A stretch of 63,187 nucleotides of DNA from the IMG/VR virus record IMGVR_UViG_3300042507_002438, positions 1 to 63,187 of that record; one strand, written 5' to 3'. The notes beneath the pieces were generated by a model. The model did no database searches, was not told where the DNA came from, and saw only the letters and a program-made list of their open reading frames with translations. Shown one piece after another: positions 3,036-59,877 of this stretch; position 1 is the first letter of the stretch; each line of letters opens with the position of its first letter. Source of the DNA: a virus. Its lineage: Duplodnaviria > Caudoviricetes. The translations under genes and the position numbers were made by a program.

Positions 3036-3228
3036 CTATAAGAACTCCATGAACTACCTGGTGGGTCAGCCTGTCTTAAATAATACATACAAGATACACG
3101 ACATTACCAGGGAGTCAAAGGGTGACGTTACCATATGGATCAAGAGTGAAGATTCTGGCGAGATAATGCGCTGGAAAAACTTCAACTCAAACATGCCAAT
3201 ATCATTCGAGTACAACATAGACTTTTAA
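3004..3228 (+). CDS. Hypothetical phage protein
   Basis: MLIRKISIG...WK.FN.NMPIS.EY; TAATG overlap with the next gene. Confidence 0.7.
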   Translation: MLIRKISIGSDYKNSMNYLVGQPVLNNTYKIHDITRESKGDVTIWIKSEDSGEIMRWKNFNSNMPISFEYNIDF

Positions 3229-3779
3229 TGAAATCTACTTACTACGTGCTGGTTGAGCCAGTAGACGGAAAGGAGTACGCAAATCAGACCAAGGACGGGC
3301 TGATTCTTAATGTCAGCATAGAAGACTTTAAGTCAACCCAGCGCCTTGCGAGGGTAGTGGGAGTACCAGGGGCAATGAGCCTTGATGTATTGGTTGGCGA
3401 CATTATTGTTGTCCACCATAACGTGTTTAGATCAAACTATGACATGAGGGGCAGACTAAAGAAGTCTAACTACCTGATAGAGAATAGTCTTTACTACGTA
3501 GAGCCGGAGAGGGTGTACATGATAATGCGTGACGGAGAGTGGAAGATGTTTGGCGACTACGCATTTGTGGAGCCGGTAAAAAGAAGCACGGACGGATACC
3601 ACAGCAACTCAGCTGCATACGTTGAGATGGTTGGAAGGGTGTCTATGATCGATGAGTCTTTTGGTAGCGTTCATGTTGGTGACTTAATAACATTCCAGAA
3701 GGAGAGTGAGTACGAGTTTAGGATTAATGATCAGAAGTACTACAGGATACCAACCAAAAACATAGTAGCCGTATTATGA
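3228..3779 (+). CDS. GroES-like protein with two tandem Cpn10-like modules
   Basis: YVLVEP...GLIL...VVGV..VGD.I.V and FVEPV...G.V...VGD.I.F...EY....K.Y.I...IVAVL both resemble the Cpn10 fold. Confidence 0.65.
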   Translation: MKSTYYVLVEPVDGKEYANQTKDGLILNVSIEDFKSTQRLARVVGVPGAMSLDVLVGDIIVVHHNVFRSNYDMRGRLKKSNYLIENSLYYVEPERVYMIMRDGEWKMFGDYAFVEPVKRSTDGYHSNSAAYVEMVGRVSMIDESFGSVHVGDLITFQKESEYEFRINDQKYYRIPTKNIVAVL

Positions 3780-28600: not shown

Positions 28601-31600
28601 GAAGCTACGTCTAGAGCAGAAAAAACAAAAGACGGAAGAATTAATTTGAGAACTGCTCATATTACAGACCAGGTTCCATTAGGTGGATTCTATAAATATA
28701 AGACAAACTCTAACATGACTGGAAGCTGGATTATATCTGGCGAGATGAAAGTAAATAGAGTATTGACGGATAAAGAAGTTAATGATATTAACAAGAAAGG
28801 GGGAGGAAAAGATCTGCCAAGGCTTACTCCGTTTGACTACGAGGCATATGGATTTAATGTTGACGGATCAGTAAAAAATCCAAAAAATGTATTATCAAAC
28901 CAAATTGCTAGAGCGTATTTAGTGGCAAAAGAGACCGGTGAGAACGAGGAATTAGTTAACGCGGTAGACAATGCGCTAAAGATAAATACGAAGGCTCAGA
29001 AGGCTCCTAAGTACGTGCCAGAAAGTGTGTACAAGTATCTTACAGAAGACGCCGACGGTAACATCGTGTTCCACCACTACTCTAAGGCAAGAAGAGACGA
29101 GATCAAACCATCGACTGGTTCTGGTAGCTTCTTGACTAGCAGAGAAGAGCAGCAGGCACTGTCTAGTGTCGGTGGTCTTGGGATGTACTATACCCAGCAA
29201 GGACAAAAAGAGCCAGGAGTAGGGGACGAGAGACACACGGTGGTAGTTCCTAAAGAAAAGATCTACTACATGACTAGTGACCCGCTAAATCTTTACGACG
29301 AGGCTAGGGCCCGATTCCTTGACTACATGAACAGAAATAACGACGTACAGATTGAGTACGCGTTTAATCCTAACTACCAGACAGCATGGATCACGAAGGT
29401 AGCGCAGGAAAAAGGTTTTGACATGGTCATCAGCAAGTGGAAGAACGACGCCGACTACAGAGCACAGTCTTCTATAGCGTTGAAGCCAATTGAGGAAGAC
29501 TTGCCAATGAAGGACATCGAAGACAACATAGAGGTTGGAGACCGAGTGTTTGTTTCTGGTGCGCCTGCAATTATTACTAGTATCGACGAGAACGGACTCG
29601 CTACATACAAGCAAAAGAACTCTTCTGGTAAGTTTGACATAGAACTTGGCAAGCGTACCGACAGATACGGCAAGATGACCTTGCTAGACAAGGGGCCATT
29701 CGAGATGACAGAGGACGGAGAAATAGTTCAGGCATCCATCACAACAAGAGGCCAGAAAGCTTCCAGAGAAAGAATGATGAACGAACTTGACGGAGTAATA
29801 GCAAAGTCAAAAGAAAGAAAGGCAACAAAAGAAACCGTGTACAATAACGCACTTGCATACTTGCAGGGGTCTAAGGTATACGAGGAGGCTGACGACGTCG
29901 AGAGAGAGTCACTAGTAAGAGGACTTAGAAAGAAGCTAGGCCTGAAAGAAAAGTCTGTGTCTAGAATATTCTCACTCAAGAGAAAGGACAACGGAATAAC
30001 CGTAAACGAGAGAATATCACTCAGAGAACAGATCAGACTGGAAGCAAAGGCGGCAAAAGACGCTATCCAGGCACGCCAGAAGATTGGCGCAATGATTAAG
30101 GACCAACTGTCTGGAATGTTCAAGAAGGGCATCATCAAGACCGCTCAGTTGCAGGCCATCAACAGAAAGTTATTGCAGCTTAACTTCTTCAACCAGGACC
30201 ATGTAGAGAACTTTATCAACTACATGGACAAGGTGTTCAGAGACGCTGAGTACGCAGACAAGCTGTCTAAGGCAAACGCATTACAGGCTAGAATCAAGAG
30301 ATCTGTCAAGGACAAGACAATTCAGGCAGAAACTAGAGACACGGCTAAAGAGTTCTCTAAATTGGCTCCATATCTTGCGACAGACATCGACGCTTACATA
30401 GCAGCTGCTGAAGAGGTTTACGAGGCTATTCAACAGACAAAGGGAACCGTGACAGATGGAATAGCAAGCGTTACCTTTAAGAAGGCCATGAACTACGAAA
30501 GGGTTCAAGAGTATACAAAGAACGAGGCGGCAGCACAAGAGGAGGCTAGAAAGCAACAGTTAATAGAAAAGAATAAGTACCTTCTAGAGGCTGGAGTTCT
30601 TGACGAGAGCATGTCATTGAAAGAAATGATGTCAATAATCGAGTCAATAGAAGCCAATCCAGAAAGTGAAGTGGCTAAAGACAAAGAGAAGATCATCAGA
30701 GACTACGTGAATAAGTACTTTGACTCTTATAGAACTATCCTAGAAGAGATCATAAGAACTGACATCGATCCATTTACCGGAGAGCGCATGTATCTAACAG
30801 ACGCGCAGAGAACACAGATCGGAAAATTCTTGGCAGTTGATCTAAACGTATTGAGCCTAAAGGATGCGTACAGCATGGTTAACGCTATAGACAACTTCGT
30901 GATGAACCAGAACACGGACGGAATGGAGGCAACTATAGCTGCATACGAAGGAATAAAGAACGCAAAAGAAGCCCTCAAGAAAGGCTTAGTGGCTAGATCA
31001 TTGAGAGCATACTGGAGTAAGAAACTTGGAAGGGTTTGGGGTGAGCAGTTCGAGCAGATCACTATGATGCACGAACGCATGTTTGGTGGCGTTCAAAGAG
31101 CTATTGAATTTGACAGGCTAAGCGGACTTTCTAAGTTGTTGACTGATAAAGTAAAAGCGCTAAAATCTTTCAATGCTATCGTAGAGAGTTACGCCAATAA
31201 ATTCGGAAAGGTAAAAGACTTCAACAAGGCTGAAAATGTATTTGAGCGTGGAATGCTTGGTATTGTTGCCAGAAATGTTCAGGGATCAGAAACCGAACAA
31301 CAAGAAGAGTTCAACAAGCAGAAGAAGAACATAGAGATCAGCATAAAGGCCATGGAGCAAGGAACTGATAAGCAAAAGAAGGAGGCCGTAGTCGCTAAGA
31401 AGGTTTACGATAAGATACTCAAGGACTCAAACTCATATCAGGACGCCAAGAAAAAAGCCGGAAAAGAAAACGTAATGGCAGTTGAGTTCTGGCAGGGTCA
31501 ATTCTCTAACATATTTGACAGTCTACAAGATGTTTCTAGAGGCGTGTACAACACCATACTAGACAGGGACGTTAACTACCTTCCTCACACGTACAAGAGG

Positions 31601-33238
31601 TTTGAGAAGAAGGGCGACAGCATGGAGGTTAGCGAAGACGGAAGCGCATTCATGGGCATAAACGAAGGCTTCGACACCAAAGAGACCGGAGTATTAATGA
31701 AGGCTACAAAGCCAAAACTCACAGAGACTGGCATACCCTCTAGAATACTCAGCTTTGACTTTGACACAAATATGTCTAGAGCTATGCAGGGAGCTTTGAT
31801 TGACATCAATACCGCGTCAACCATCAGACAAATATCTTCTTTCTACAACTCAGATGAGTTTGCTAAGATAATTCCTAGCAAAGAAGATAGAGACCTGGCC
31901 AGAGACAGAATGAGAAAGTTCATCAAGAAGACCAAGAGGAAAGAATATACTCAAGAGGACAACTTAGACACGCTTACAAAGGCCGCAAACTATATATCCT
32001 CATTCTCTGCCAGTAGAGCGCTTGGTAGTATTTCACAGATACCAAAGCAGACTATAAGTGTCGCGGCAAATACCATGATAAACACCGGAGGAAGCATATC
32101 AATATTCGACGTATTTAAGGCTAAGGACTTCATCGATAAATCTGGATACGGAATATCTATCCGTGGTATTGCCTCTCAGGCAGACATACAGAGTATTAAC
32201 CAAATCCTCAAGAAGGCCGAAGAGTCAAAGGGCAAGCAGGCGCTAGACTACCTCAAGAAGTTGAATGACATGTACCTTGAGTTGTTTGTTGCAAGCCCTG
32301 ACGTGTACATCGCAAGAGCGTCATGGCTAGCGTACTACAAAAAGAAGTTAAATTCTCTTGGGGTAGACACAGACAATATCGACTGGTCAACGCACGAGAT
32401 CAACACAGAGGCCGGAGACTATGCGCAGAGAATGACTGACCGTCAGCAAAACTTCTCAGACTCAGACCTTGCCGGAGAGATAATGTCAAACAAGAAGCCA
32501 ATCGTACAGCTTTTAAGAAAGTCATTGTTCCCGTTCGCGTCATTTGGCATAAATAAAAAGGCGCAGCTTATGGGCGACATGTCAGTTCTTTACAACCCAC
32601 TATCATCAAGCGATGACAAGAAGGCAGCGGTAGCGTCACTTGCTAGCTGGGGCGTAGAGATGGCGGTGTACAGTGGCGTGAGCATATTCATCAGCAACGT
32701 GGTGTTTAACTTCATTGCTAACTTGATGGCCGACTACGAGGAGGACGAGGAAGAGGAAGACAAGAAATATACAAAGGCCATTCAGTACAGAGCAAAGAAT
32801 GCGGCGGTAGAATTACTTTCTCCAATACCAAACGTTGCAGACGACGCCCTTGTAGACGGAATAAACTTTACACTAAATAGTGTTGGCGTTGACGAACAGT
32901 ACAGACTACCTGAAGGAAAGGGAGAGAAGTTGTATGAGAAGGTGGGACTCACAAACATCATGCAACAGAAACTGGCAAACCTTAGCAGAATGACTTACGC
33001 CGGAGCTACCGGAACATACGTTGACAAGTTTGGAAACGAGAAAGAGATGAGCAAGGAAGACCAGCAAAGAGCTGCATCTATGGCCGCCGTGTATGCGTTC
33101 TACGCATTTGGTTTTGTGCCTGCTGACTTTGGAATAACCATAGACAATGCATACTACAAGCTAGGAAAAAAATCTAAGAAGGCTGGTAGCGGTGGAGGAA
33201 AGAGCGCATTCGGATCAATTGACACAAAGATTAAATAA
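22664..33238 (+). CDS. Giant multidomain (polyvalent-type) virion-ejected protein
   Basis: 3524 aa ORF; hydrophobic A/G segment, LTAENP domain, HEAWH zincin-like motif, DLWWSRTW domain, RPGWH domain, long helical C-terminus. Confidence 0.8.
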   Translation: MDKLDKLYNLYLSKGLITEATPIDKFKSASDQQRAKLYELGKTSGLFATTDLNTFSSAWGGLSVDKKKEESALPSGEEGTSLATQKMAGPKPLASSRIKQVKNPSNFNKNIESSDYQRHTKLASVAINAADKGDKNTLINTLKEMNAIRAMYPAGVFESDKQMSEDLQSIEKVASRKKLDVDIKTASRMPVPQKKIELKLPQGVQIKTSDIKQDPEDLKRAVRADLIELEAMDFEMVDKQVEEEFAQDGISDKVLQTINRWTSRAGWGYMPTSVEKSIAKATNEVKANNPDASAEDILAYAKEQRKRELLEVQKDKAVEDYFEGKAILGRPEEQVNIERSLENIKSKQEYHIAKFNEKNQEIERNLSTLELYNKKIENKEELTPEDVNNINYAVNNVNLLYDDLQKNYKNIETDDKDLKNTAEEIDRFKRNYSYLTNAGARVGSAAIDITSGIAGYMDMQQSLLMGALKDATGVDVSQANIWDDISKNLSGTSESIKQSIAKNKELKNVNSIGDFAEWSGQLVLDQAPQIVLAMATGGAAVPLMGASATGSKFEEIKDDEKYTMTQKVVASYAVGLAEALSEKIELDVIKYAFPSSRIAKAAANTKADEEILKQSLRTGIKGATINNIEKLGMASLNVNKEGISEVVAQLGTNLTDRYILDKKDVSILDGIDDAYLSGAVIGGSMIAAPAFASKVISPFVYDPEKNVSKNVSKIAELTKALGIATKESDKKIIQGQIDKLNNDNFSIVDAAINRTKNLSPDEIREGVKSIERMQEIKSEIADIRGNASYSTEAKNAMVSGLLDEYNQLVLKRKQLIDKANAIQKQTTSEVPVQPEAGVGEEVAQGEPQTEPKITTKEGVQEGTKEVVSGVEITYPSEQQKQERKEARNRPEYVEESSKDLQEEDVDALSEELSGEFGILTAENPMAQPLTEEENKQLNQKAEEWLKGKGYKPKRVTGKYDQAENSFFVPGLTVEDAIEFAKEFNQESVAHSTGLVKQDGSMNPRMNSDDNFSFEDFTPESNYVSVVKTKDGLKTFQVGYDFNTTVDSKKPSAQPVQQAVAQNIQETDENYQESRDAVMQIAQDQKEFVPGDAVLEQVTTDGQGNVTGGVVTFLDADRNPTRKTISRAQTAPAKTGIVENVKKAISKLFPKLEAKNFNSAAEMREYARSKYGDAVANQVQDDDAARVLLDQNNEPIAILINDQLSDETTLPHEAWHPIMLKAFGDNQKLFSQFRAQIKKALIDNGFKDIADQLDAFANQEEYKKTGVDAEEWLVQFGALLTNKKIDANKLTPKQKSLIEKLRDIINSFMIKVSGQPVFNETSSAKDILDFMASIADSMAKGEDISGLFEVEGIDKTTEVKSRSQKAAIEILDGPKFDNKLKEDVASYLNSLRDSEIPPNSSREQLMERFINNVYEEVGYYLFSKPDARSAGLTWYIEDMVEFENKVKVIIPELSNEKQYKLFLSILAFTSSGTNPNQNLSYAYNLWNNSNDPKNFDFSKDWGDKKLSFVDKKGKAVASGVIVKETAKEYTVELVDSLGRPEVDSKGNKKYEKISKASMKPGYPKPTGYTNRGKIIVGQLEKLEKLYSDLKSIDAVVDWLETPHPIAELRKYNEAVPDVNGKGPGKTNKKYDPSKNADGERNGAFIFGEKIGSFYQNMIGIGETITMDLWWSRTWNRYMGTMINTTSGNKEIQEVPRSDRERNIMREAVKMVAEDLNLQVSELQAAIWYFEQELWTKSGNASPSYSYVTAIDELTEKLKVDEETRTKLRSAEADLTEAEKRRKNAAERAAAVVASKGGEIPKVKVTTRAQKSIEQANEDFGIEDGEAMFSTRAQKLEPKKVSSLSSSIQSIDKETTKKLKSLINKGVKEPKKTQKAYKLFKVKKEFPGELFPLFVGANESVTVGEWIEAKAGELTTTKEGKTMVKSTLGPLAYRPGWHSGDLAIATHIGSKRNPTDKAPTLRAEDQVWAEVEVGSDVDWQKEATSRAEKTKDGRINLRTAHITDQVPLGGFYKYKTNSNMTGSWIISGEMKVNRVLTDKEVNDINKKGGGKDLPRLTPFDYEAYGFNVDGSVKNPKNVLSNQIARAYLVAKETGENEELVNAVDNALKINTKAQKAPKYVPESVYKYLTEDADGNIVFHHYSKARRDEIKPSTGSGSFLTSREEQQALSSVGGLGMYYTQQGQKEPGVGDERHTVVVPKEKIYYMTSDPLNLYDEARARFLDYMNRNNDVQIEYAFNPNYQTAWITKVAQEKGFDMVISKWKNDADYRAQSSIALKPIEEDLPMKDIEDNIEVGDRVFVSGAPAIITSIDENGLATYKQKNSSGKFDIELGKRTDRYGKMTLLDKGPFEMTEDGEIVQASITTRGQKASRERMMNELDGVIAKSKERKATKETVYNNALAYLQGSKVYEEADDVERESLVRGLRKKLGLKEKSVSRIFSLKRKDNGITVNERISLREQIRLEAKAAKDAIQARQKIGAMIKDQLSGMFKKGIIKTAQLQAINRKLLQLNFFNQDHVENFINYMDKVFRDAEYADKLSKANALQARIKRSVKDKTIQAETRDTAKEFSKLAPYLATDIDAYIAAAEEVYEAIQQTKGTVTDGIASVTFKKAMNYERVQEYTKNEAAAQEEARKQQLIEKNKYLLEAGVLDESMSLKEMMSIIESIEANPESEVAKDKEKIIRDYVNKYFDSYRTILEEIIRTDIDPFTGERMYLTDAQRTQIGKFLAVDLNVLSLKDAYSMVNAIDNFVMNQNTDGMEATIAAYEGIKNAKEALKKGLVARSLRAYWSKKLGRVWGEQFEQITMMHERMFGGVQRAIEFDRLSGLSKLLTDKVKALKSFNAIVESYANKFGKVKDFNKAENVFERGMLGIVARNVQGSETEQQEEFNKQKKNIEISIKAMEQGTDKQKKEAVVAKKVYDKILKDSNSYQDAKKKAGKENVMAVEFWQGQFSNIFDSLQDVSRGVYNTILDRDVNYLPHTYKRFEKKGDSMEVSEDGSAFMGINEGFDTKETGVLMKATKPKLTETGIPSRILSFDFDTNMSRAMQGALIDINTASTIRQISSFYNSDEFAKIIPSKEDRDLARDRMRKFIKKTKRKEYTQEDNLDTLTKAANYISSFSASRALGSISQIPKQTISVAANTMINTGGSISIFDVFKAKDFIDKSGYGISIRGIASQADIQSINQILKKAEESKGKQALDYLKKLNDMYLELFVASPDVYIARASWLAYYKKKLNSLGVDTDNIDWSTHEINTEAGDYAQRMTDRQQNFSDSDLAGEIMSNKKPIVQLLRKSLFPFASFGINKKAQLMGDMSVLYNPLSSSDDKKAAVASLASWGVEMAVYSGVSIFISNVVFNFIANLMADYEEDEEEEDKKYTKAIQYRAKNAAVELLSPIPNVADDALVDGINFTLNSVGVDEQYRLPEGKGEKLYEKVGLTNIMQQKLANLSRMTYAGATGTYVDKFGNEKEMSKEDQQRAASMAAVYAFYAFGFVPADFGITIDNAYYKLGKKSKKAGSGGGKSAFGSIDTKIK

Positions 33239-36471: not shown

Positions 36472-36597
36472 TATATTACGCCAAAACAAACAAATTTTAT
36501 GAGTTTTGGCTGGGTTATAAATAAAATAGGCTGTTACGTTGTAGTCATTAATCTGCTTTCACACCCAACTTAATGTCAGTATCAGATCACCTATTAG

Positions 36598-36760
36598 AAG
36601 TCAGAGGAGGACTTGAACCCCCACACCATTTGTGGTTTTCTCTAATCTACCCTTGCAAAGGTACCACCAGCGTTTGGCCACTCCTACTAAAGGTCCGCTT
36701 ACCTCCCTTCAGTAATAACAGACTTGCGGTCTATTGTGTGCACTCCTGTGCTATCTGACT
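36598..36760 (-). ncRNA. 163-nt tRNA-shaped RNA with an expanded domain in place of the anticodon arm
   Basis: Acceptor AGTCAGA/TCTGACT, D-like arm GCAC-AGGA-GTGC, T arm GGGGG-TTCAAGT-CCTCC, several internal hairpins; intergenic. Confidence 0.7.
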
Positions 36761-50864: not shown

Positions 50865-51102
50865 GGTCTTCGCTCATTATATTGTTAATTATTTCCCTCA
50901 CGTCGTTCTCGTCGTAGCACTCCATGAACCATGAATGCTTGAGGTACTCGTTCTCTTCGCACAAGAAATGTATCAGCATGTGCCGTCTCATCTCTCGCTC
51001 GCTGTCCCACTCGTAGCCCGAAAAGTCGTCCGAGTGCCACACTTCTTCTGTTGGGTAGTAGACCGCCTCGGCCTCAAACCCCTCTTCAAATATTATTTTC
51101 AT
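50845..51102 (-). CDS. Acidic early protein
   Basis: 85 aa, E/D-rich. Confidence 0.65.
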   Translation of the reverse strand: MKIIFEEGFEAEAVYYPTEEVWHSDDFSGYEWDSEREMRRHMLIHFLCEENEYLKHSWFMECYDENDVREIINNIMSEDHEDYRD

Positions 51103-51200
51103 TTTTTGTCGTTGTCAATTAGTGTAATAATCCCTACAAATAATAGATAGATAACGCCCATCGTCGCTATGCATATCAGTTGCCATACATGATGATTCAT
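51099..51200 (-). CDS. 33-aa single-TM peptide
   Basis: MNHHVWQLICIATMGVIYLLFVGIITLIDNDKK*; ATGA overlap. Confidence 0.45.
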   Translation of the reverse strand: MNHHVWQLICIATMGVIYLLFVGIITLIDNDKK

Positions 51201-51203
51201 TGT

Positions 51204-51620
51204 TTAGTCCTCCCACTCTGTATAGTAACTATCCCCGTCGTCGTCATACTCTTCCTCCCACGTGGTATTGTACACGTTCTTGCACACGGCATCCCTACAC
51301 TCGTCGCAGCAAGCATGCGCCTCACCGCCTCTGAATACGTAACCCTCTGTGAAATTCCAATCGCCGCAGTTGTCACAATATCTGTAGTCGTCGTTGTGTC
51401 TGTTGCATGCATAGATAAATGTAGCCTTTTCAAAGTCGGTCAACTTCTCTCCATCAATCCAATCTGATGGTTTACAATTTGGGTCCTCAAGATACTCGGC
51501 TACTAAACTCTTCATGTAAATTGAATTTGCAACCTCTTCTCTTAATTCGTTAATTGCCCATAGTTCATTCATGATGACTACGCTCTTGACGATTTCATTT
51601 GATTTTAATAGTTGTTTCAT
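51204..51620 (-). CDS. Early protein with zinc finger and acidic tail
   Basis: CDNC...EGY...CCDEC...YYTEWE; ACACTATATC leader. Confidence 0.75.
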   Translation of the reverse strand: MKQLLKSNEIVKSVVIMNELWAINELREEVANSIYMKSLVAEYLEDPNCKPSDWIDGEKLTDFEKATFIYACNRHNDDYRYCDNCGDWNFTEGYVFRGGEAHACCDECRDAVCKNVYNTTWEEEYDDDGDSYYTEWED

Positions 51621-51641
51621 GATATAGTGTATTAATTAGTT

Positions 51642-51863
51642 TTATTGGTTAAATCCCCATTGCTCTACGAAATGGTTGTTGCATTCGCTACACCTTACAA
51701 TGCGCTGTATTGCGTTTCCTACTTGCTGCCTCTCTTCGGTTGGGGTGTACTCTGTTTCGTCCCCACAATGTCTACATATCTTTTTGTATGAGATAATTAT
51801 TTTCTTGCTTGAGGTGTTGTCATATGCCGACTCCCAAGTTACTTGATGCGCTACTTGTTTCAT
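51642..51863 (-). CDS. Zinc-ribbon protein
   Basis: CRHC...CSEC. Confidence 0.65.
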   Translation of the reverse strand: MKQVAHQVTWESAYDNTSSKKIIISYKKICRHCGDETEYTPTEERQQVGNAIQRIVRCSECNNHFVEQWGFNQ

Positions 51864-52075
51864 GCTTGTTCGATTAATTTGATGATTTCTTCAGTTGACT
51901 CCAACACCTCAAACCCACCATTGTTATGGGTAGCTACGCCAACTCTTGTGTACTTTGGCTTTATCCTATTGTCGGCATTTTCGGGAACCTCATACATATG
52001 ACCAATGTGCATGGGGTTCACGTACAATTCTTCTTTTTTGTTAAGGTAGAATGTTGTTAGTTTAATTAGTTTCAT
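51860..52075 (-). CDS. FlbD-like small protein
   Basis: IKLT....E.YVN...I......V.ES.EEI...I; ATG 52075 follows the ACACTATATT leader. Confidence 0.65.
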   Translation of the reverse strand: MKLIKLTTFYLNKKEELYVNPMHIGHMYEVPENADNRIKPKYTRVGVATHNNGGFEVLESTEEIIKLIEQA

Positions 52076-52095
52076 AATATAGTGTATTAATTTGT

Positions 52096-52141
52096 TTGAA
52101 CCGCGGAGGGGAATCGAACCCCTCTCGTTCCTTTCGCGGTT
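52096..52141 (-). ncRNA. Mini-tRNA-like element 3 (degenerate)
   Basis: AACCGCG-AAAGGAACGA-GAGGGG-TTCGATT-CCCCTC-CGCGGTT-CAA; intergenic. Confidence 0.7.
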
Positions 52142-52145
52142 AGTA

Positions 52146-52418
52146 TTATAGATGTCCTCCAAATACTTTATTGTTGTCTTCAATTAAGTCAAATCTAGTT
52201 TCAGACTCGCAGTCTATCCAATCCATTCCGTCTTGCAGTCCAAAGCCAAAATCAAATTCTGATTTACTTATGTTGTCGTCCAATTGTTCAACAAACAATT
52301 CGTGGTTATCCAAAAGCCACTCGTGTATCTTGTCTTGGCTGATGTGAGATGGAACTTCGATAGTTACTGACGCTACCTTATGGTAAACTTCTCTTGTTGT
52401 GATTGTTACTTGTTTCAT
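52146..52418 (-). CDS. Early hypothetical protein
   Basis: 90 aa; ACACTATATC leader. Confidence 0.75.
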   Translation of the reverse strand: MKQVTITTREVYHKVASVTIEVPSHISQDKIHEWLLDNHELFVEQLDDNISKSEFDFGFGLQDGMDWIDCESETRFDLIEDNNKVFGGHL

Positions 52419-52429
52419 GATATAGTGTA

Positions 52430-52714
52430 TTATTTTAAGCCTAGGTTGATGTTGATTTGATTGAACATTACAGAACTTTCAAGGTCTTCTAGAAATCCTA
52501 CCTCAATGCCGTAAGTGTCAGTATCTTTTATATTGTCGCTATATTGGACTAAAGACTCTGATTCGTCATCGTGAAGTCTGAAGACCTCCTTGTTCATGTT
52601 CATTAGGTCTAGAACCTCGGTGTGTTTAACCTCTTGGAAGATAAACCCGTCCAAGTTGTAATAAGTTTCACATGGCGCTAAGCCCAATTTTTTTACGTTT
52701 GTTAATTTTTTCAT
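52430..52714 (-). CDS. Early hypothetical protein
   Basis: ATG 52714 after the conserved leader; F.L.DD.SES.....GIEVG. Confidence 0.75.
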   Translation of the reverse strand: MKKLTNVKKLGLAPCETYYNLDGFIFQEVKHTEVLDLMNMNKEVFRLHDDESESLVQYSDNIKDTDTYGIEVGFLEDLESSVMFNQININLGLK

Positions 52715-52735
52715 GATATAGTGTATTAAATTGTT

Positions 52736-52783
52736 TGGTTCCCGTGACCCGACTCGAACGGGTAGCATGCCATTGGCACGGGA
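52736..52783 (-). ncRNA. Mini-tRNA-like element 2
   Basis: TCCCGTG-13 nt-ACCCG-TTCGAGT-CGGGT-CACGGGA-ACCA; perfect 7+5 bp. Confidence 0.85.
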
Positions 52784-52788
52784 TGAGA

Positions 52789-53136
52789 CTAGTCTAGGTA
52801 TATAGACTTGTCGTTGTTGACGTCGTAGATTGCCTTCTGATGATTGGCGTGCCCGTAAGCAATGGCGACCTCTCTGTCTTGGATGTTCATGCTCAAGTCT
52901 AGGTATAACTTGTTGTCGTCTACCCAAGCGCCAAAGTACGTGTACTCTGACCTTAGTTGTGCTTGTGGTCTGTACCTATCGCACGTCTTGTTTATCTCTT
53001 CGTCCGATATGTCATCAAAGTTGTCGATGATGAACTCTAGCCCCTCTAGGCTGACCATGTAGCCCGACGTTGGCGCGCTGTTGTCCTTGTCCAAGGAAAA
53101 CCCGCCGTTACTTTTGAGTAAGTTTGCGTAATTCAT
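52789..53136 (-). CDS. Early phage protein
   Basis: GGF...P..GYMVS...G.W.D....YLD.S...A...G....Q.AIYD. Confidence 0.75.
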   Translation of the reverse strand: MNYANLLKSNGGFSLDKDNSAPTSGYMVSLEGLEFIIDNFDDISDEEINKTCDRYRPQAQLRSEYTYFGAWVDDNKLYLDLSMNIQDREVAIAYGHANHQKAIYDVNNDKSIYLD

Positions 53137-53278
53137 TTTCAATTTCTCTTTTAAGTTCTAGTTGTCGTTCAATTGCTCGCGTTAATTTGTTGGCGTACTC
53201 GTGGCGCCCCTCTTGGTGCACTAGGTAGGCTAACTTGCCTACCCGTTGTGCGATTTCGATTAGTTCTTCTATTAGCAT
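53108..53278 (-). CDS. 56-aa helical protein
   Basis: MLIEELIEIAQRVG...; fills the gap. Confidence 0.55.
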   Translation of the reverse strand: MLIEELIEIAQRVGKLAYLVHQEGRHEYANKLTRAIERQLELKREIENELRKLTQK

Positions 53279-53517
53279 AAATCTTTGTTTGATACTTTAA
53301 GTGTGTTGTTGTGCTGTTCTGAAATCATGTCGATTGCGACTCTGTATACACGTCCGTTCGGCATTTGATAGGTCACGTACTCTTGGAGTGCGCCCGTCGT
53401 GGAGCGGTGTGTAACCACCCCACTGCGCCATGCTTGATTTCGGTAGACCTTACACTCTCTAGCCCACCCGCGAAACTCGTCGCGTGCTTCGGGCAGTTCA
53501 TTTAATAGGTTAGTCAT
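53272..53517 (-). CDS. Early hypothetical protein
   Basis: MTNLLNEL...; start uncertain (53556 possible). Confidence 0.65.
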   Translation of the reverse strand: MTNLLNELPEARDEFRGWARECKVYRNQAWRSGVVTHRSTTGALQEYVTYQMPNGRVYRVAIDMISEQHNNTLKVSNKDLC

Positions 53518-53521
53518 GTCG

Positions 53522-53710
53522 TTAGTTGATTTTGTTTGATTGAATATGTAATTCATGCAGCATGTCTGATACGTTACATATCATCTGTTCTGTGTGCATT
53601 AAGTTTTGTTGGTCAGCAAAGCATTCGCCTTTTTCCATGTTGTACATTTTGCGAAGTGTCTTAAGAAACTTCTCGCATGCAGCAATTTTTTCTTCTTGAA
53701 TTGTTCTCAT
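53522..53710 (-). CDS. Early hypothetical protein
   Basis: 62 aa; conserved leader. Confidence 0.7.
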   Translation of the reverse strand: MRTIQEEKIAACEKFLKTLRKMYNMEKGECFADQQNLMHTEQMICNVSDMLHELHIQSNKIN

Positions 53711-53727
53711 GATATAGTGTGTTATGG

Positions 53728-54006
53728 TTAATATGTGTACAATGTGTTGTTGAAATTAATCGGGAGTTTTTTTGCTTTGATATATCCGTTACGCATGGTT
53801 TTGTATGTATTAATTGGCATCCAAAAACCAAAGCAAGACAAGAATGAGGATACGTAGATAAATGCCGCCTTATCCGTCATTACAATAGCGCGGCATCCGT
53901 GAGTTACCTCTTCATTTTGTGAGATTTTAAAAATTGGCTCGTCGGATGACTCATATTTTAACTTGAAGTCATCGGACATTTGCGGTGTAATTTTGATTGT
54001 CTTCAT
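53728..54006 (-). CDS. Early hypothetical protein
   Basis: ATG 54006 after the conserved leader, 21 nt from the hammerhead cut. Confidence 0.7.
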   Translation of the reverse strand: MKTIKITPQMSDDFKLKYESSDEPIFKISQNEEVTHGCRAIVMTDKAAFIYVSSFLSCFGFWMPINTYKTMRNGYIKAKKLPINFNNTLYTY

Positions 54007-54021
54007 GATATAGTGTGTTAT

Positions 54022-54071
54022 GGTTAAGACGCCCGTAGGCGTTTCGTCCAATTAGGACTCTTCAGTTAACC
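54022..54071 (-). ncRNA. Type I hammerhead ribozyme 1
   Basis: GGUUAA-CUGAAGA-GUCC-UAAUU-GGAC-GAAA-CGCC-UACG-GGCG-UC/UUAACC; complete core, three perfect stems. Confidence 0.93.
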
Positions 54072-54272
54072 TTTGTGGTCGTGAAAAACAACTTGGTGCG
54101 ACCTAATTAGTTCGGGTATACAATACGCGTCCCAATCACCGCTCTCTATTTTGTTGTCAGCATAATCAATTGCCTCCTCAATTGGTACGTTTACATACGG
54201 GCAGTTCGCATAGATTTCGTTTGGAATTTCACTAACGAATACGTCGTTGAAGTAGATTGTTACTAGTTGCAT
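54066..54272 (-). CDS. 68-aa acidic early protein bracketed by two hammerheads
   Basis: Conserved leader; stop codon lies in hammerhead stem I. Confidence 0.75.
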   Translation of the reverse strand: MQLVTIYFNDVFVSEIPNEIYANCPYVNVPIEEAIDYADNKIESGDWDAYCIPELIRSHQVVFHDHKG

Positions 54273-54287
54273 GATATAGTGTTTTAT

Positions 54288-54339
54288 GGTTAATATGCCC
54301 CGCAGGGCATTTCGTCTATTGAAGACTCGTCAGTTAACC
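54288..54339 (-). ncRNA. Type I hammerhead ribozyme 2
   Basis: GGUUAA-CUGACGA-GUCU-UCAAU-AGAC-GAAA-UGCCC-UGCG-GGGCA-UA/UUAACC; stems covary with copy 1. Confidence 0.93.
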
Positions 54340-54501
54340 TCTTACTCCTCCATTGTAGCACCTTTTCACTTTGTAGTGAGAAGACCCAATTTGCTTTTCC
54401 ATTTTTTTCGCTTGAACACAAGCATCTTTTAGGTTTGAAGCAATTATGTAAATGCTTGAAGGCTTGCCGTTTGAGTAGATTACATTGTAGGTGTTGTTCA
54501 T
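54334..54501 (-). CDS. 55-aa first early protein
   Basis: MNNTYNVIYSNG...NGGVRG*; conserved leader; stop in hammerhead stem I. Confidence 0.7.
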   Translation of the reverse strand: MNNTYNVIYSNGKPSSIYIIASNLKDACVQAKKMEKQIGSSHYKVKRCYNGGVRG

Positions 54502-54520
54502 GATATAGTGTGTAATTAGT

Positions 54521-54568
54521 TGGTTACCTAGAGCGGACTCGAACCGCTTGCACGCCTAGTGCTAGGTA
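54521..54568 (-). ncRNA. Mini-tRNA-like element 1
   Basis: TACCTAG-13 nt-AGCGG-TTCGAGT-CCGCT-CTAGGTA-ACCA; perfect 7+5 bp. Confidence 0.85.
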
Positions 54569-54855
54569 ATGTTACATGGTAGCCGTACCAAATAGGACTC
54601 ATTTGTATGCCTCGCAGCGGGACTATATACGCTGCTGTTAGTCGTTTCGCCGAATCTTCATGACGATTTACTCAAAGGTCACTATCGGGGCGCCGTATCG
54701 CGTTACACACTATGTCAGAGCATGTCACCTAATCGGGTTAGGCTAGCGTACGGGTTATTTCAAAGAACTTATACTATCGGCGGGGAGCCAAAGGCTGCAA
54801 CCCTAGAAGTAATAGTATGTAAGTAAAAGAACGATGTTGAACTAAATCAACGATA

Positions 54856-54887
54856 CAAAGGTATATCGGGGGTTTTGACTATGCAAG
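54856..54887 (-). promoter_or_regulatory. Main early promoter (Bacteroidota -33/-7)
   Basis: CTTG-20 nt-TACCTTTG, canonical spacing, heads the whole - strand arm. Confidence 0.8.
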
Positions 54888-54951
54888 TTATATGCAAAAT
54901 ATTTTTGATTTTCTGACATTTGCGTGACAAAGTTTTTTGAGTTTGATTGAT

Positions 54952-54964
54952 TATCAATGAGTTA
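54952..54964 (+). promoter_or_regulatory. IHF-type binding site
   Basis: TATCAATGAGTTA matches WATCAANNNNTTR. Confidence 0.5.
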
Positions 54965-55010
54965 CAAATCCATGTTAAAAAATGATGAAGAGAAGGTGGG
55001 GTAAACTCTC

Positions 55011-55067
55011 TGTTTCACGCACAAATGTTCCACGGAACTAATGCTGTTTCACGGCCAATGTTCCACG
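55011..55067 (+). repeat. Four direct TGTTYCACG repeats
   Basis: At 55011, 55026, 55045 and 55059. Confidence 0.75.
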
Positions 55068-55401
55068 GCCATTCCGTGACATTACTATGACACAGTTGTA
55101 AACAGGGAGCGAAGGTAGGGCAGCAAGCAAGCATACACGAACGAACGACGTACACGAACGACGAACGGCAGCGGACACGGTCAGCATGTATATTATGTAG
55201 GTAGGTATGTCATCCAAGGCCTACAGAAAATGCCAAAAATCTACAAGAAAAAGGCCGAAACCGAGACCCCCCTATCGCGAAAAAATCGGTTTCCGGGATC
55301 GGCGGCTGGACGTCAAATGGGTATATTACCCAAAATATCCACATTTCCAACGACTTTTTTCAGGCAATACAACTACCGGTTTCGGGGATATTCTGTGAAT
55401 A

Positions 55402-55571
55402 GTGTTGATTTCTAACATTTTGATGTTGATTTTGTGTTGATGTAACCCGCGTCAATACTGGGAATGTTGAAAATGTTAACTTTTTCTCTTAAAAATGAAA
55501 AATTAAAAATAATATTCTCACATATATTATCCTATATATATAAAGGGGCCGGTCACTTTAACATTCAACAT
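55402..55571. other. Origin-like element (copy B)
   Basis: TGTTGAT iterons, TGTTGAAAATGTTAAC, CTCAC...CTATATATATAAAG.GGCC, TTAACATTCAACAT in the same order as at 45177-45357. Confidence 0.6.
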
Positions 55572-55600
55572 TACTTTTTTGAGTTGTATCTTTGCCTGAA

Positions 55601-56227
55601 ATGAATCTAAAACAGGTCAATTTTAACGGCTACTACAAGGAAGAGTCGTCAAAGAAGCAGGTCTACCTGCACCATACTGCCGGAAGTGCGGACGGAGAGC
55701 GTCAGTTTCAGTTTTGGGACGCGGACGCGGTGAAGGTTGCGACGTGTGTTTGCGTGAGTAGGAGTGGAGAGGTGGTGCAGGGGTTTGGGAGTAAGTACTG
55801 GGCTCATCACTTGGGCCTGAGCAGCAAGCACTTTAAGGCTCGCGGCATTGGGTACCGCAACCTGGACCGCTCGTCAATCGGGATCGAGATCTGTAACTGG
55901 GGCTGGCTCAAAAAGGACGGGGACAACTTCTTCACGTATACGGGCACGAAGATTCACAAGGACCTGGTAGTCGAGCTGGAGACGCCATACCGCGGCCAAA
56001 AGTACTGGGAGGCGTACACGCCGGAGCAGATCGAGGCGACAAGAGAGCTACTGGTGCTGTGGCGTGACAAGTACGGCATACCAATGACATACAACGGGGA
56101 CATATGGGACGTGACGATGCGAGCGCTAAAGGGTGACCCAGGCCTTTACACACACAATAGTGTGAGGTCAGACAAGACGGACGTGTACCCTCATCCACAG
56201 CTAGTAAACATGCTAAAGGGGCTATGA
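55601..56227 (+). CDS. N-acetylmuramoyl-L-alanine amidase (Amidase_2 endolysin)
   Basis: LHHTAG, WAHH, SIGIEI, YT.EQ, TH....DK.D..P; ATG 6 nt after TATCTTTG (55587). Confidence 0.9.
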   Translation: MNLKQVNFNGYYKEESSKKQVYLHHTAGSADGERQFQFWDADAVKVATCVCVSRSGEVVQGFGSKYWAHHLGLSSKHFKARGIGYRNLDRSSIGIEICNWGWLKKDGDNFFTYTGTKIHKDLVVELETPYRGQKYWEAYTPEQIEATRELLVLWRDKYGIPMTYNGDIWDVTMRALKGDPGLYTHNSVRSDKTDVYPHPQLVNMLKGL

Positions 56228-57604: not shown

Positions 57605-57622
57605 TGCCTATATTTGCCGTGC

Positions 57623-58303
57623 ATGCACGAGCAAGAAGACGTATTTAGGGCCAAAAAGAAGCCCAAGAACCCAATTAAATTCAAGTTACAGCTCAACGAG
57701 GAGCAAAAGCAAGCAAAATCGGTCATACTACACAGTCCGATAACGGTCATAACGGGGGCAGCAGGGAGTGGAAAGACGCTCCTTGCTACCGCAACCGGCC
57801 TTGACCTGTTATTTACAAAGGAAGTGGAGAAGTTGGTGATAACCAGGCCTGCGGTTCTTGCCGGAGAGGACCTCGGATTCCTTCCTGGAGACATACAGGA
57901 GAAGATGGACCCGTGGCTACAGCCAATATACCAGAACTTTTACGCACTTTATGGCAAGGAGGCCATAGAAAAAGAGCTAGCGGAGGGCAGAATACAGATC
58001 CTTCCGATGGGATACGTGCGTGGAATCACGTTTGTGGACTCATTTGTCATAGCGGACGAGGTGCAGAACCTGACGGACAACCAGATGCAGGCACTTTTGG
58101 GTCGGTTGGGACGTGGATCCAAGATGGTGCTGTGCGGAGACGTGAGCCAGATTGACTTGAAGAACAAAAAACAGTCAGGCCTGCCATTCTTAAAGAAGGT
58201 GAGCATGTCAGTAGACGAGGTGAAGATGGTGTGCTTGCAGACAAACCACAGGCACGACGTTGTGGAGAAGATATTAGCAGTATACAAAACATACGAGGAC
58301 TAA
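57623..58303 (+). CDS. phoH: PhoH-like ATPase
   Basis: GAAGSGKT, ITRP, GFLPG..EK..P, RG.TF, DE.QN, R.G..SK..L.GD..Q.D. Confidence 0.93.
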   Translation: MHEQEDVFRAKKKPKNPIKFKLQLNEEQKQAKSVILHSPITVITGAAGSGKTLLATATGLDLLFTKEVEKLVITRPAVLAGEDLGFLPGDIQEKMDPWLQPIYQNFYALYGKEAIEKELAEGRIQILPMGYVRGITFVDSFVIADEVQNLTDNQMQALLGRLGRGSKMVLCGDVSQIDLKNKKQSGLPFLKKVSMSVDEVKMVCLQTNHRHDVVEKILAVYKTYED

Positions 58304-58335: not shown

Positions 58336-59877
58336 ATGATCGTAAAAAACATTGAATTCGACAAGGATCGACTGTTAGTTGGTATCTCAAAGATTGCCGC
58401 AGCAGTTGGAAGTACGATGGGACCGATGGGTCGCACGGTGTTGTTAGAGTCAGAGAACCACGTCGGTGGCGTTACAGTCACAAAGGACGGGGTAACAGTT
58501 GCTAGAGGGATCACTCTAGAAGACCCGGTAGAGAATTTAGCGGTTACATTGATGAAGCAGGCAGCAGAGAAGACTGCGGTAAGTGCCGGAGACGGTACGA
58601 CCACGTCAATTGTGCTGACGCATGCCATCATCGACACGTTTATTGCCAGCGGAAGAGAGGCCGTGGCAAGTGAGATGCGTGCAATTAAGAAAAGTTCAGA
58701 GGAGATCATCGAGAGACTAAAGGAGATGGCTGTTCCAGTGACTGACGAGACGTTACTACACGTTGCGACGATCAGCGCTAACGGAGACGAAGAGATTGGT
58801 CAGTTAGTGGCTGACGTATTCATGCGAGTTGGCGGCTCTGGGGTTGTTACGGTGGAGAGAAGCAATACCAGCAAGACGTACTTTGAGATCTCTGAGGGAA
58901 TGCGCATCAACAGAGGATGGACCAGTCCATACTTTATTACGGACCACAAAAAGAGAGAGGCTGTATTGGACAATCCATACGTGCTAGTGACGGACAGAGA
59001 GATACAGAGCATCCAAAGCATCGAGCACATATTGGCGCCGCTGGTGAGAGACGGCAAGAGCATACTAATCATCGGAGAGATGAACACGCACGCGTTGAAC
59101 GCTCTGAACATGAACGTTGCTAAGGGCACGATCAAGGCGGCTGCCGTGGTTCCTCCGCAGTTTGGATACAAAAGAAAAGAATTAATGGCTGACATCGCTA
59201 ACGCTGTTGGTGCAAAGTATATCAGCGACGAGGTTGGGGACGACTTTGGCCTGGTTAATATTTCTGACCTGGGGCGCGTGAGCAAGGCGGTGATCGGAAA
59301 GGACTCAACGGTGATGGTGATGCAAGACAACTCTTTGGCAAAGAATAGAGCGGACGAGTTGTTGTCGATGGAGGCTCCGGTGGACGAGGAGGAGAAGAAG
59401 TTCTTGGCAGAGAGAATCGCGACGCTAAACGGTAGTGTTGGGGTTGTGTATGTTGGGGCGCAGACGGACATCGAGCAGAAAGAGAAGTACGACAGGGTGG
59501 ACGACGCGGTGAGCGCTACAAAGGCTGCAATCGAGGAGGGAATCCTTCCTGGCGGTGGTTACGCACTGTTAAAGATCAGTGAGACCATGCCAGAAGACGA
59601 CGTGATGACTAATGCGGTGACAATTCCGTTCTACACCATATTGGAGAACGCTGGATTCGACGAGGACATGATCCAGACGGTGTGTGACGAGTTTGACGCC
59701 AATGGTCGGGCATTCAACCCTGTGACTCAGGAGTTTGGAGACATGATGGAGATGGGAATCGTTGACCCACTTAAAGTTACAAGAAGTGCAATCGAGAACG
59801 CGGTGAGCGTTGCTACGACTATCTTGAGCACACAGGCAATCATTTATAACATGAGAGAGCATGAGAGCGGTAAATAA
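58336..59877 (+). CDS. groEL: Chaperonin GroEL
   Basis: TMGP.GR, TKDGVTVA, AGDGTTT, TISANGD, EEGILPGGG, GIVDP.KVTR.A. Confidence 0.96.
   Translation: MIVKNIEFDKDRLLVGISKIAAAVGSTMGPMGRTVLLESENHVGGVTVTKDGVTVARGITLEDPVENLAVTLMKQAAEKTAVSAGDGTTTSIVLTHAIIDTFIASGREAVASEMRAIKKSSEEIIERLKEMAVPVTDETLLHVATISANGDEEIGQLVADVFMRVGGSGVVTVERSNTSKTYFEISEGMRINRGWTSPYFITDHKKREAVLDNPYVLVTDREIQSIQSIEHILAPLVRDGKSILIIGEMNTHALNALNMNVAKGTIKAAAVVPPQFGYKRKELMADIANAVGAKYISDEVGDDFGLVNISDLGRVSKAVIGKDSTVMVMQDNSLAKNRADELLSMEAPVDEEEKKFLAERIATLNGSVGVVYVGAQTDIEQKEKYDRVDDAVSATKAAIEEGILPGGGYALLKISETMPEDDVMTNAVTIPFYTILENAGFDEDMIQTVCDEFDANGRAFNPVTQEFGDMMEMGIVDPLKVTRSAIENAVSVATTILSTQAIIYNMREHESGK

Follow-up and report, generated by a model that had tools for sequence, protein, structure and literature searches.

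Hammerhead ribozymes and tRNA-like minihelices at the gene junctions of a small-gene operon in a probable flavobacterial phage

What do two hammerhead ribozymes do when they stand, one after the other, between the small genes of a phage operon? The question is raised by the virus record IMGVR_UViG_3300042507_002438, a 63,187-bp assembly that was analysed whole and is called the window here. On its minus strand, a leftward operon of small genes starts after a 1.1-kb divergent intergenic region, and two type I hammerheads, HH-A and HH-B, lie between its genes 1 and 2 and its genes 2 and 3. The answer that we favor, with moderate confidence, is that hammerheads and tRNA-like minihelices punctuate the polycistronic RNA of a phage whose host probably lacks Shine-Dalgarno initiation. 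The ribozymes and the open reading frames (ORFs) around them are listed below, with a slash at each predicted cut.

54334..54501, minus strand: small 55-aa ORF, first in the leftward cassette; it terminates within stem I of HH-A and has no PHROG family.
54288..54339, minus strand: HH-A, type I hammerhead, GGUUAA CUGACGA GUCU-ucaau-AGAC GAAA UGCCC-ugcg-GGGCA U A / UUAACC.
54066..54272, minus strand: 68-aa ORF, between both hammerheads; no PHROG family.
54022..54071, minus strand: HH-B, type I hammerhead, GGUUAA CUGAAGA GUCC-uaauu-GGAC GAAA CGCC-uacg-GGCG U C / UUAACC.
53728..54006, minus strand: 92-aa ORF, starting 21 nt past the HH-B cut.

Both copies carry the complete core of the class. The strand C3 U4 G5 A6 N7 G8 A9 reads CUGACGA in HH-A and CUGAAGA in HH-B, the G12 A13 A14 strand with the A15.1-U16.1 pair reads GAAA ... 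U in both, and position H17 after U16.1, where any base but G is allowed, is A in HH-A and C in HH-B. An earlier note on this DNA had reported two type I hammerheads on the minus strand, with CUGANGA and GAAA cores, NUH triplets (AUA in HH-A, GUC in HH-B) and a shared stem I GGUUAA/UUAACC; all of these can be read in the sequence, and the full core, the fold, an independent family model and family-wide covariation agree on the assignment. The minimum-free-energy fold is exactly the hammerhead three-way junction in each case (HH-A, -16.3 kcal/mol, z -3.24; HH-B, -16.6 kcal/mol, z -3.34), with stem I open and loops closing stems II and III in the type I layout, and none of 200 shuffles folds as stably as either copy. 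Cleavage is predicted between A17 (54294) and U1.1 (54293) in HH-A and between C17 (54028) and U1.1 (54027) in HH-B. Both cuts lie 21 nt upstream of an ATG, whose A is at 54272 for HH-A and 54006 for HH-B, so that the cut coordinates in the earlier note hold.

At gathering thresholds, Rfam has no match in the whole window. We rejected this silence as evidence of absence, because a permissive search and family-specific models recover both ribozymes. The Rfam comparison that the earlier note had proposed, run permissively on 53600-54800, gave a divided result: HH-B matches RF00163 Hammerhead_1 at 31.6 bits, below the threshold of 34 (E 1.3e-5 in this 1.2-kb search), and HH-A has no RF00163 match at E≤10 and aligns only with the RAGATH-1-hammerhead (23.1 bits, E 0.37). 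The RF00163 model is of eukaryotic-satellite origin, and the sub-threshold scores reflect its seed alignment, not the ribozyme class. The window copies share with RF00163 the core, the three-helix junction with open stem I, A15.1-U16.1, H17 and G10.1-C11.1, and HH-B aligns end to end; they differ in a plain 6-bp stem I, in the 5-nt U-N-R-R-U loop II of the phage family and in the score itself. RAGATH-1 (RF03152), a type I variant with a phage-associated context, gives weak full-length alignments to the window copies (23.1 and 18.2 bits), but its threshold of 56.3 bits is far off, its upstream hairpin is absent from these copies and its stem I is different.

A covariance model trained on 128 hammerheads from other viral contigs, with the window rows excluded (R2; one misaligned sequence, L073, was dropped before building), scored HH-B at 65.2 bits (E 5.2e-14) and HH-A at 63.1 bits (E 1.7e-13) in a search of both strands of the whole window, and gave no further match at E≤1 in the 63 kb. 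These values bear on the idea that the two elements resemble the hammerhead consensus by chance. The sub-threshold Rfam scores would fit that idea, as would the partial-core pattern CTGANGAG..CGAAA, which was found twice against 0.20 expected and reached two matches in 2 of 100 shuffles. Against it stand the R2 E-values of about 1e-13 for both copies, the absence of an equally stable fold among the 200 shuffles, and a relaxed three-stem descriptor that found 0 candidates in 1.03 Mb of control (unrelated) phage loci; chance resemblance is effectively refuted. HH-A and HH-B can be identified as type I hammerheads as securely as sequence alone allows, and self-cleavage is predicted.

The family to which they belong was collected with the pattern GGTTAACTGANGAG-N(6-30)-CGAAA-N(6-30)-TTAACC, which fixes stem I and the core, so that only stems II and III carry evidence. 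The pattern matched in at least 120 viral contigs and gave 135 distinct sequences; such samples are pattern-selected (at least 120 loci per scan), and the frequencies given here are not population estimates. Stem II has at least four contiguous pairs in 121 of the 135 and stem III in 127, compared with 3 and 3 after the stem regions were shuffled, and this pairing is maintained across 33 different stem II and 91 different stem III strands. When 129 of the 135 were aligned with the two window copies (131 sequences in all; L034 and five others were left out), 98.1% of cells pair, falling to ≤42% when the partner is slid by 1-3 columns. Double-sided changes occupy 408 cells, compared with 111 in shuffles, none of 500 shuffles reaching 408. 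The A15.1-U16.1 pair is invariant (131/131). Among the 135 family sequences, position 15.2-16.2 holds C-G 98 times and U-A 31 times, H17 is a C in 106 and an A in 29, and the AUA triplet with U15.2-A16.2, the state of HH-A, occurs in 11; the HH-A and HH-B variants are the family's two common states. Loop II keeps a 5-nt U-N-R-R-U form across the family, and A-rich sequence flanks the ribozymes.

The earlier note had also called the stems of the two copies covarying. Stems II and III do differ yet pair, and 15.2-16.2 is C-G in one copy and U-A in the other, so that between HH-A and HH-B the covariation comprises one stem II pair, the 15.2-16.2 pair and the stem III changes; this is a comparison of two copies only, and the strong evidence for covariation comes instead from the family and from an orthologue in the contig L242. 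That contig, whose PhoH is ~70% identical to that of the window, has two hammerheads in a syntenic cassette, and the copy that aligns with HH-A has compensatory changes at 10.2-11.2 (stem II) and at 15.2-16.2. The family model R1, applied to 80 PhoH-related loci, found hammerheads in L242 only; another relative, L239, is uninformative on this point, its contig ending at about window position 54497.

We had considered the palindromic stem I GGUUAA/UUAACC as an invariant, mechanistic rule, and dropped it: when stem II serves as the anchor, only 20 of 110 members have GGUUAA. Many other 6-bp stem I sequences in this sample of 110 distinct sequences, anchored on the most frequent stem II and loop II, still pair (6 were not parseable), and stem I therefore covaries like the other stems. 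As for copy number, 20 of at least 120 loci have two to four hammerheads with the same stem I, 122-1137 nt apart, and 100 have a single GGUUAA-type copy.

Seven named relatives were scanned with the family model. Four of them carry a single copy, namely the Flavobacterium phages elemoE_6-9C and elemoA_7-9A and the Cellulophaga phages phi18:3 and phi19:3; MW202828.1, phi38:1 and Gundel_1 gave no match. The ribozyme of elemoE_6-9C (NC_055854.1) lies between two leftward small genes, under a 35-aa hypothetical ORF on the opposite strand. That plus-strand ORF, gp65 (NC_055854.1 16289-16396; L429 1990-2097), overlies the minus-strand hammerhead and is probably a spurious gene call, and a 21-codon minus-strand micro-ORF stops at a TAG whose last base is also the ribozyme's first G. 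The family can thus flag annotation errors, of which the opposite-strand ORF in NC_055854.1 is an example.

Where the ribozymes sit relative to genes was examined in 141 non-redundant GGUUAA-type members, two of them from the window, on more than 100 contigs, counting ORFs of at least 30 codons. An ATG that opens an ORF follows the predicted cut by 16-45 nt in 137 of the 141 members, and by 18-24 nt in 116 of those 137; the remaining 4 have none. On the other side, 130 members have an upstream ORF of at least 30 codons, and in 81 of these the ORF ends inside the ribozyme or overlaps its first 10 nt, with TAA in GGUUAA (38), TGA in CUGA (27) or TAG over the first G (16) as the stop codon. The other upstream ORFs end 3-9 nt before the ribozyme (42) or further off (7). 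Both window copies follow the pattern: the 55-aa ORF stops at UAA 54336-54334, within the 5' strand of HH-A stem I, and the 68-aa ORF at UAA 54068-54066, within HH-B stem I. The first ten nucleotides of the ribozyme, GGUUAACUGA, contain stops in two frames, and where UA precedes them the third frame has one as well (TAG); the 5' end of the ribozyme therefore doubles as a translation stop for an ORF running in. By position, the ribozyme occupies almost exactly the space between a stop codon and the next leader.

What follows the ribozymes is a repeated leader. A DNA search for the motif ACTATATCATG (ATG included) found seven exact copies and one with a mismatch, all on the minus strand at 51618-54509.

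54499..54509, 54270-54280, 54004-54014, 53708-53718, 52712-52722, 52416-52426 and 51618-51628, minus strand: exact copies of the leader motif (sequence search).
52073-52083, minus strand: copy of the leader motif with one mismatch (sequence search).
53708-53731, minus strand: the full HH-B leader, UUAACCAUAACACACUAUAUCAUG, without a ribozyme; the preceding 77 nt are unstructured (-1.2 kcal/mol, z +0.5).

Both hammerheads precede the same repeated leader, UUAACCAUAA[A/C]ACACUAUAUCAUG; their equal 21-nt spacing follows from this shared leader and does not amount to two independent measurements. The function that the earlier note had read from that spacing consequently survives in the looser, family-wide form (18-24 nt in 116 of 137) and not as an exact 21 nt. 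A hammerhead precedes two of the eight leader copies and a tRNA-like minihelix three; the other three (53708-53718, 52416-52426 and 51618-51628) have no structured element upstream, and neither R1 nor R2 found a hammerhead upstream of 53708-53731. The copy at 52426 overlaps the upstream stop codon, with 11 nt between the genes. In viral contigs the 14-nt leader gave scattered single matches only (those loci, L121-L238, were reused as controls), and the leader is therefore specific to this phage. Relatedly, each of the multi-hammerhead contigs L053, L060, L120 and L054 has a conserved motif of its own between UUAACC and ATG, for example AAGGACAGC..ATG in L060 and GC(A/G)CACTATAACAGGC in L054, which suggests that other hammerhead loci, like the window, may have genome-specific leader signals.

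Alternatively, (A/U)ACACUAUAUCAUG could be a phage-specific promoter or initiation site, giving every block a transcript of its own with hardly any leader. The ribozymes and minihelices would then act mainly on read-through RNA, to form or protect the 3' ends of upstream messages and to insulate the units, and would not make the 5' end from which translation proceeds. The motif keeps the same register relative to the ATG in all 8 copies and is confined to the cassette, it occurs at three junctions that lack a processing element, and the other hammerhead loci have genome-specific motifs before the ATG as well. In a scan of 51000-55700, no terminator-like site fell inside the cassette on the minus strand, and without intrinsic terminators another route to 3' ends would be useful. 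The same scan gave 13 promoter-like sites against 11.5 expected from shuffles and 4 terminator-like sites against 4.0, hence no excess, with a promoter search that lacks a Bacteroidota model. The motif may resemble CACACTATA-type promoters of single-subunit polymerases. Among the ORFs scanned, a subset of those in the window, there is nevertheless no single-subunit RNA polymerase, and the 3524-aa ORF of the virion module has neither a DFDxD motif nor a relative in the PDB. The copy at 52426, overlapping a stop codon within an 11-nt intergenic space, suits a translational signal better, and the tightly bounded distance from cut to ATG across the family would not be expected if only the 3' end mattered. 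On balance, we regard a promoter role for the motif as unlikely, though less so than the other rival readings.

Neither do the ribozymes look like passengers of a duplicated module of stop codon, ribozyme and leader, selfish or neutral and perhaps cleaving, with no selected role in expression. Stem I and the 3' leader are common to both copies, which is consistent with duplication, and the ribozyme-less leader at 53708-53731 could be a decayed copy. Stems II and III, however, have diverged in a compensatory manner, which indicates selection on structure, the position rules hold in 141 members on more than 100 contigs, and a syntenic orthologue has been kept in L242 although its PhoH is only ~70% identical. 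We consider this explanation improbable.

The second kind of element at the junctions is a tRNA-like minihelix, of which the window has three; bounded at the discriminator base, they span 54568-54524, 52783-52739 and 52141-52098. The earlier note mentions neither these elements nor the eightfold leader, nor that the stem I UAA terminates the preceding ORF.

54521..54568, minus strand: minihelix 1; acceptor stem UACCUAG/CUAGGUA (7 bp), 13-nt linker with GG, T arm AGCGG-UUCGAGU-CCGCU, ACCA.
52736..52783, minus strand: minihelix 2; acceptor stem UCCCGUG/CACGGGA, T arm ACCCG-UUCGAGU-CGGGU, then ACCA; it begins 5 nt past the upstream stop.
52098..52141, minus strand: minihelix 3; acceptor stem AACCGCG/CGCGGUU, 6-bp T stem, loop UUCGAUU, discriminator C, no CCA; it begins 4 nt past the upstream stop.

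Their common plan is a 7-bp acceptor stem, a 10-13-nt linker with GG, a T stem of 5-6 bp and a discriminator base; in all three the acceptor stem stacks on the T stem, whose loop fits UUCRANY. From the discriminator to the ATG, the leaders measure 22, 24 and 22 nt (minihelices 1, 2 and 3), compared with 21 and 21 nt from the two hammerhead cuts. The fold of minihelix 3 has a z of -2.5. In L239, a relative 82-90% identical to the window elsewhere, three of the five T-stem pairs of minihelix 1 are changed on both sides (AGCGG/CCGCU to GUCAG/CUGAC) within a surrounding stretch that is nearly identical, and L109 has a near-copy of minihelix 3 with a compensatory change in the acceptor stem. Nine elements with one additional nucleotide at either side of the T stem were aligned. 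The sixth T-stem pair, which the search did not require, is paired in 9 of 9 with three pair types; the other pairs were required by the search, and their pairing is not evidence. The linker GG is invariant in this alignment and may form the elbow as the equivalent of the D loop; ACCA follows elements 1 and 2, not 3.

Minihelices of this type are associated with the hammerheads beyond the window. R3, a covariance model from the nine minihelices, matched 12 times in 0.91 Mb of loci with hammerheads, of which 6 were training sequences and 6 were new, whereas 0.88 Mb of control loci gave no match; a regular-expression scan gave 14, 4 and 0 matches in 1.09, 0.95 and 1.03 Mb, respectively. Minihelix 3 has a weak mascRNA-like alignment in Rfam (17.2 bits, E 4.4).

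Two further stretches of the window have tRNA-like features. The non-coding stretch 54569-54810, or 54569-54850 in wider bounds (minus strand), at the head of the leftward operon, runs directly into minihelix 1 and is nearly identical in L239; in a two-sequence consensus fold, its 5' part pairs with the 3' strand of the minihelix 1 acceptor. It has no Rfam or tmRNA match, and no relative beyond L239 in the loci or viral contigs scanned, and it may be a structured leader or a larger non-coding RNA with a tRNA-like 3' domain. An unusual ARAGORN call, a 92-nt 'tRNA-???' at 36597-36688 (minus strand), has an anticodon of two bases and a good T arm, GGGGG-UUCAAGU-CCUCC; no Rfam tRNA model matches it at E≤1, and R3 gives it only 12.7 bits.

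The host bears on what such elements might do. The window encodes terminase, portal, virion proteins, GroEL, GroES, PhoH, primase, helicase and ERF recombinase. The 87 terminase matches among named phages are to phages of Flavobacterium (68), Cellulophaga (15), Tenacibaculum (2) and Maribacter (1) and to one uncultured phage (70.7% identity); because all are phages of flavobacterial genera apart from the uncultured one, the host is probably a member of the Flavobacteriaceae. Translation in Bacteroidota initiates largely without Shine-Dalgarno pairing, which makes the accessibility of the leader and its proximity to an RNA end plausible targets of selection.

Taken with the observed structures, position rules and association of the two elements, this setting suggests the following sequence of events. 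The leftward small-gene operon would be transcribed as one long RNA, in which the hammerheads would cut themselves 21 nt before the next AUG. Each cut would leave the upstream message ending in a compact ribozyme fold with a 2',3'-cyclic phosphate, and would give the downstream message a 5'-OH end followed by a leader that is short, rich in A and unstructured. The minihelices would be cut by the tRNA-processing enzymes of the host, RNase P at the 5' side and RNase Z or E at the 3' side, which would yield leaders of 22-24 nt. The outcome would be single-gene or few-gene mRNAs with uniform short leaders, whose stability and Shine-Dalgarno-independent translation, gene by gene, would probably be set in this way. 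Cleavage in vivo, the action of these enzymes on the minihelices and the benefit to the phage are what we infer here. The main argument is that two unrelated processing devices occupy the same slot and leave the same leader length, which suggests that what counts is where the RNA is cut, and that selection has acted on the location of its end and not on the ribozyme itself. The lack of any excess of promoter-like or terminator-like sites in 51000-55700 also speaks for this reading.

A parallel outside ribozymes is tRNA punctuation, as in animal mitochondria and in MALAT1-mascRNA, where tRNA-shaped elements cut by RNase P and RNase Z release the flanking RNAs. The window elements differ in being reduced to acceptor stem, GG linker and T arm, in belonging to a phage operon and in alternating with ribozymes, and they are predicted substrates.

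Several observations weigh against RNA punctuation. Stem I has 6 bp and no internal loop, and no contact with loop II of the kind used by fast natural hammerheads was recognised in it; the AUA triplet with U15.2-A16.2, as in HH-A, is slower than GUC. A ribosome terminating at the stem I UAA would open the ribozyme fold for a time. Not every gene needs processing, since the leader copies at 53718, 52426 and 51628, three of the eight, have no processing element. Because 100 of at least 120 loci have a single hammerhead, cuts on both sides of a gene cannot be the general way of releasing monocistronic units. As for the minihelices, R3 gives minihelix 1 17.8 bits (E 0.022) and misses minihelix 2 at E≤1, ARAGORN calls none of the three, and Rfam tRNA and tmRNA models match none of them at E≤10. 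From the lack of ARAGORN calls and of tRNA or tmRNA matches it follows that the minihelices are not tRNAs.

Cleavage by both window ribozymes would free a 266-nt RNA, 54293..54028, carrying the 68-aa ORF, and this RNA invites a different reading, in which the ribozyme or a host ligase of the RtcB type rejoins the ends after cleavage to give a circular mRNA for the 68-aa protein. The 5' UUAACC of the 266-nt RNA can pair with the HH-B GGUUAA at its 3' end and so rebuild a hammerhead, the identical stem I strands make the RNA ends perfectly compatible, and 20 of at least 120 loci have two to four hammerheads with the same stem I. For clustered phage hammerheads, PMC3088659 considers that circular or spliced products might form, and also states that none was detected. 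GGUUAA occurs in only 20 of 110 stem-II-anchored members, most loci (100 of at least 120) have a single copy, and the tRNA-like elements in equivalent slots could not circularise in this way. Cleavage followed by ligation into a circle seems very improbable to us, less likely even than a passenger origin.

Punctuation of phage RNA by hammerheads has precedents. Perreault et al. (2011; PMC3088659) describe clustered prophage hammerheads placed on either side of single genes or of short blocks of genes; three such arrays cleave in vitro and one does so in E. coli, and processing of long phage transcripts is given as the likely role, with circular or spliced products considered and none detected. 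The window resembles those arrays in having several hammerheads close together flanking single phage genes, for which a processing role was proposed there. According to the same paper, they come from prophages of Clostridium, Azorhizobium, Agrobacterium and others, with types I-III mixed, whereas the window is a relative of lytic-type flavobacterial phages; it differs further in the stop-codon fusion, the bounded 18-24 nt to the AUG and minihelices in equivalent slots. Members of the GGUUAA subfamily may already be in the data of PMC3088659. The paper also describes the 'HHphage' variant of haloviruses HF1/HF2, found 13 nt ahead of a start codon in an early polycistronic RNA; the 5' end mapped for the major transcript falls within 3 nt of the cleavage site. 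The likeness is an mRNA 5' end made just before the AUG, the window cuts being predicted from sequence; the differences are an archaeal virus, a variant core architecture and a single site. A 2019 review (PMC6765202) treats the role of bacterial and phage hammerheads as unresolved. Early-transcript 5' ends of the crAss-like phage phi14:2 share no upstream motif, according to 10.1101/2020.03.07.982082; such motif-less ends would be compatible with processed ends, by analogy from a different phage.

The window ribozymes are thus of a known type, and clustered phage hammerheads were described in 2011 (PMC3088659); the interchange of ribozyme and tRNA mimic is the new element. A search of titles and abstract openings, a partial coverage of the literature, found no earlier description of stop-codon fusion, of a bounded AUG distance as a family rule or of alternation with minihelices. 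The titles and abstract openings likewise held nothing on hammerheads with crAss-like phages, and no natural phage hammerheads with flavobacteria.

As a tentative generalization, which we hold with less confidence than punctuation in the window itself, phages of the flavobacterial type may use a mixed code, in which a hammerhead or a tRNA mimic is interchangeable at stop-codon-fused junctions and places the mRNA start ~18-24 nt before the AUG. If this were true, the mixed code would make uniform A-rich leaders that drive Shine-Dalgarno-independent initiation in Bacteroidota, and would set message lifetime; in its boldest version, genes between two hammerheads with the same stem I, such as the 68-aa ORF, would also be released as RNAs able to circularise. 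The cassette is an unusually legible case, with a ribozyme welded to the stop codon, a bounded distance from cut to start and a second, unrelated element in the same slot. Since family members occur in cultured phage-host pairs (Cellulophaga phi18:3 and phi19:3, Flavobacterium elemoA and elemoE), the hypothesis is directly testable.

Some features of the rest of the assembly are recorded here. A crAss-like or N4-like phage with a virion RNA polymerase was entertained, its sole support being a Pfam crAss_MUZ match at the N-terminus of a 1864-aa ORF (a tail protein), and was dropped, given that the 3524-aa ORF has no DFDxD and no PDB relative and that the terminase relatives are podovirus-type phages of Flavobacteriaceae. 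The 3524-aa ORF (22664-33238, plus strand), in the virion module, has only a DUF3293 and a weak DUF7178 match; a search of it for the DFDxD motif and for relatives in the PDB found neither and left a virion RNA polymerase unsupported. Its size is reminiscent of virion RNA polymerases, with nothing to support such an identity. Among named phages, 51300-55300 has no blastn match. GroES-like and GroEL-like chaperonins are encoded at 3228-3779 and 58336-59877 (plus strand; PHROG 13932, 9e-21, and PHROG 5725, 6e-124), and a PhoH-like ATPase at 57614-58303 (plus strand). The divergent intergenic region has, at 55000-55200 (minus strand), short direct repeats (CCGTGGAACATT, CCGTGAAACAG and similar) and CGTTCGT runs; the repeats look like iterons or operator sites, and the region is possibly an origin or an early control region.

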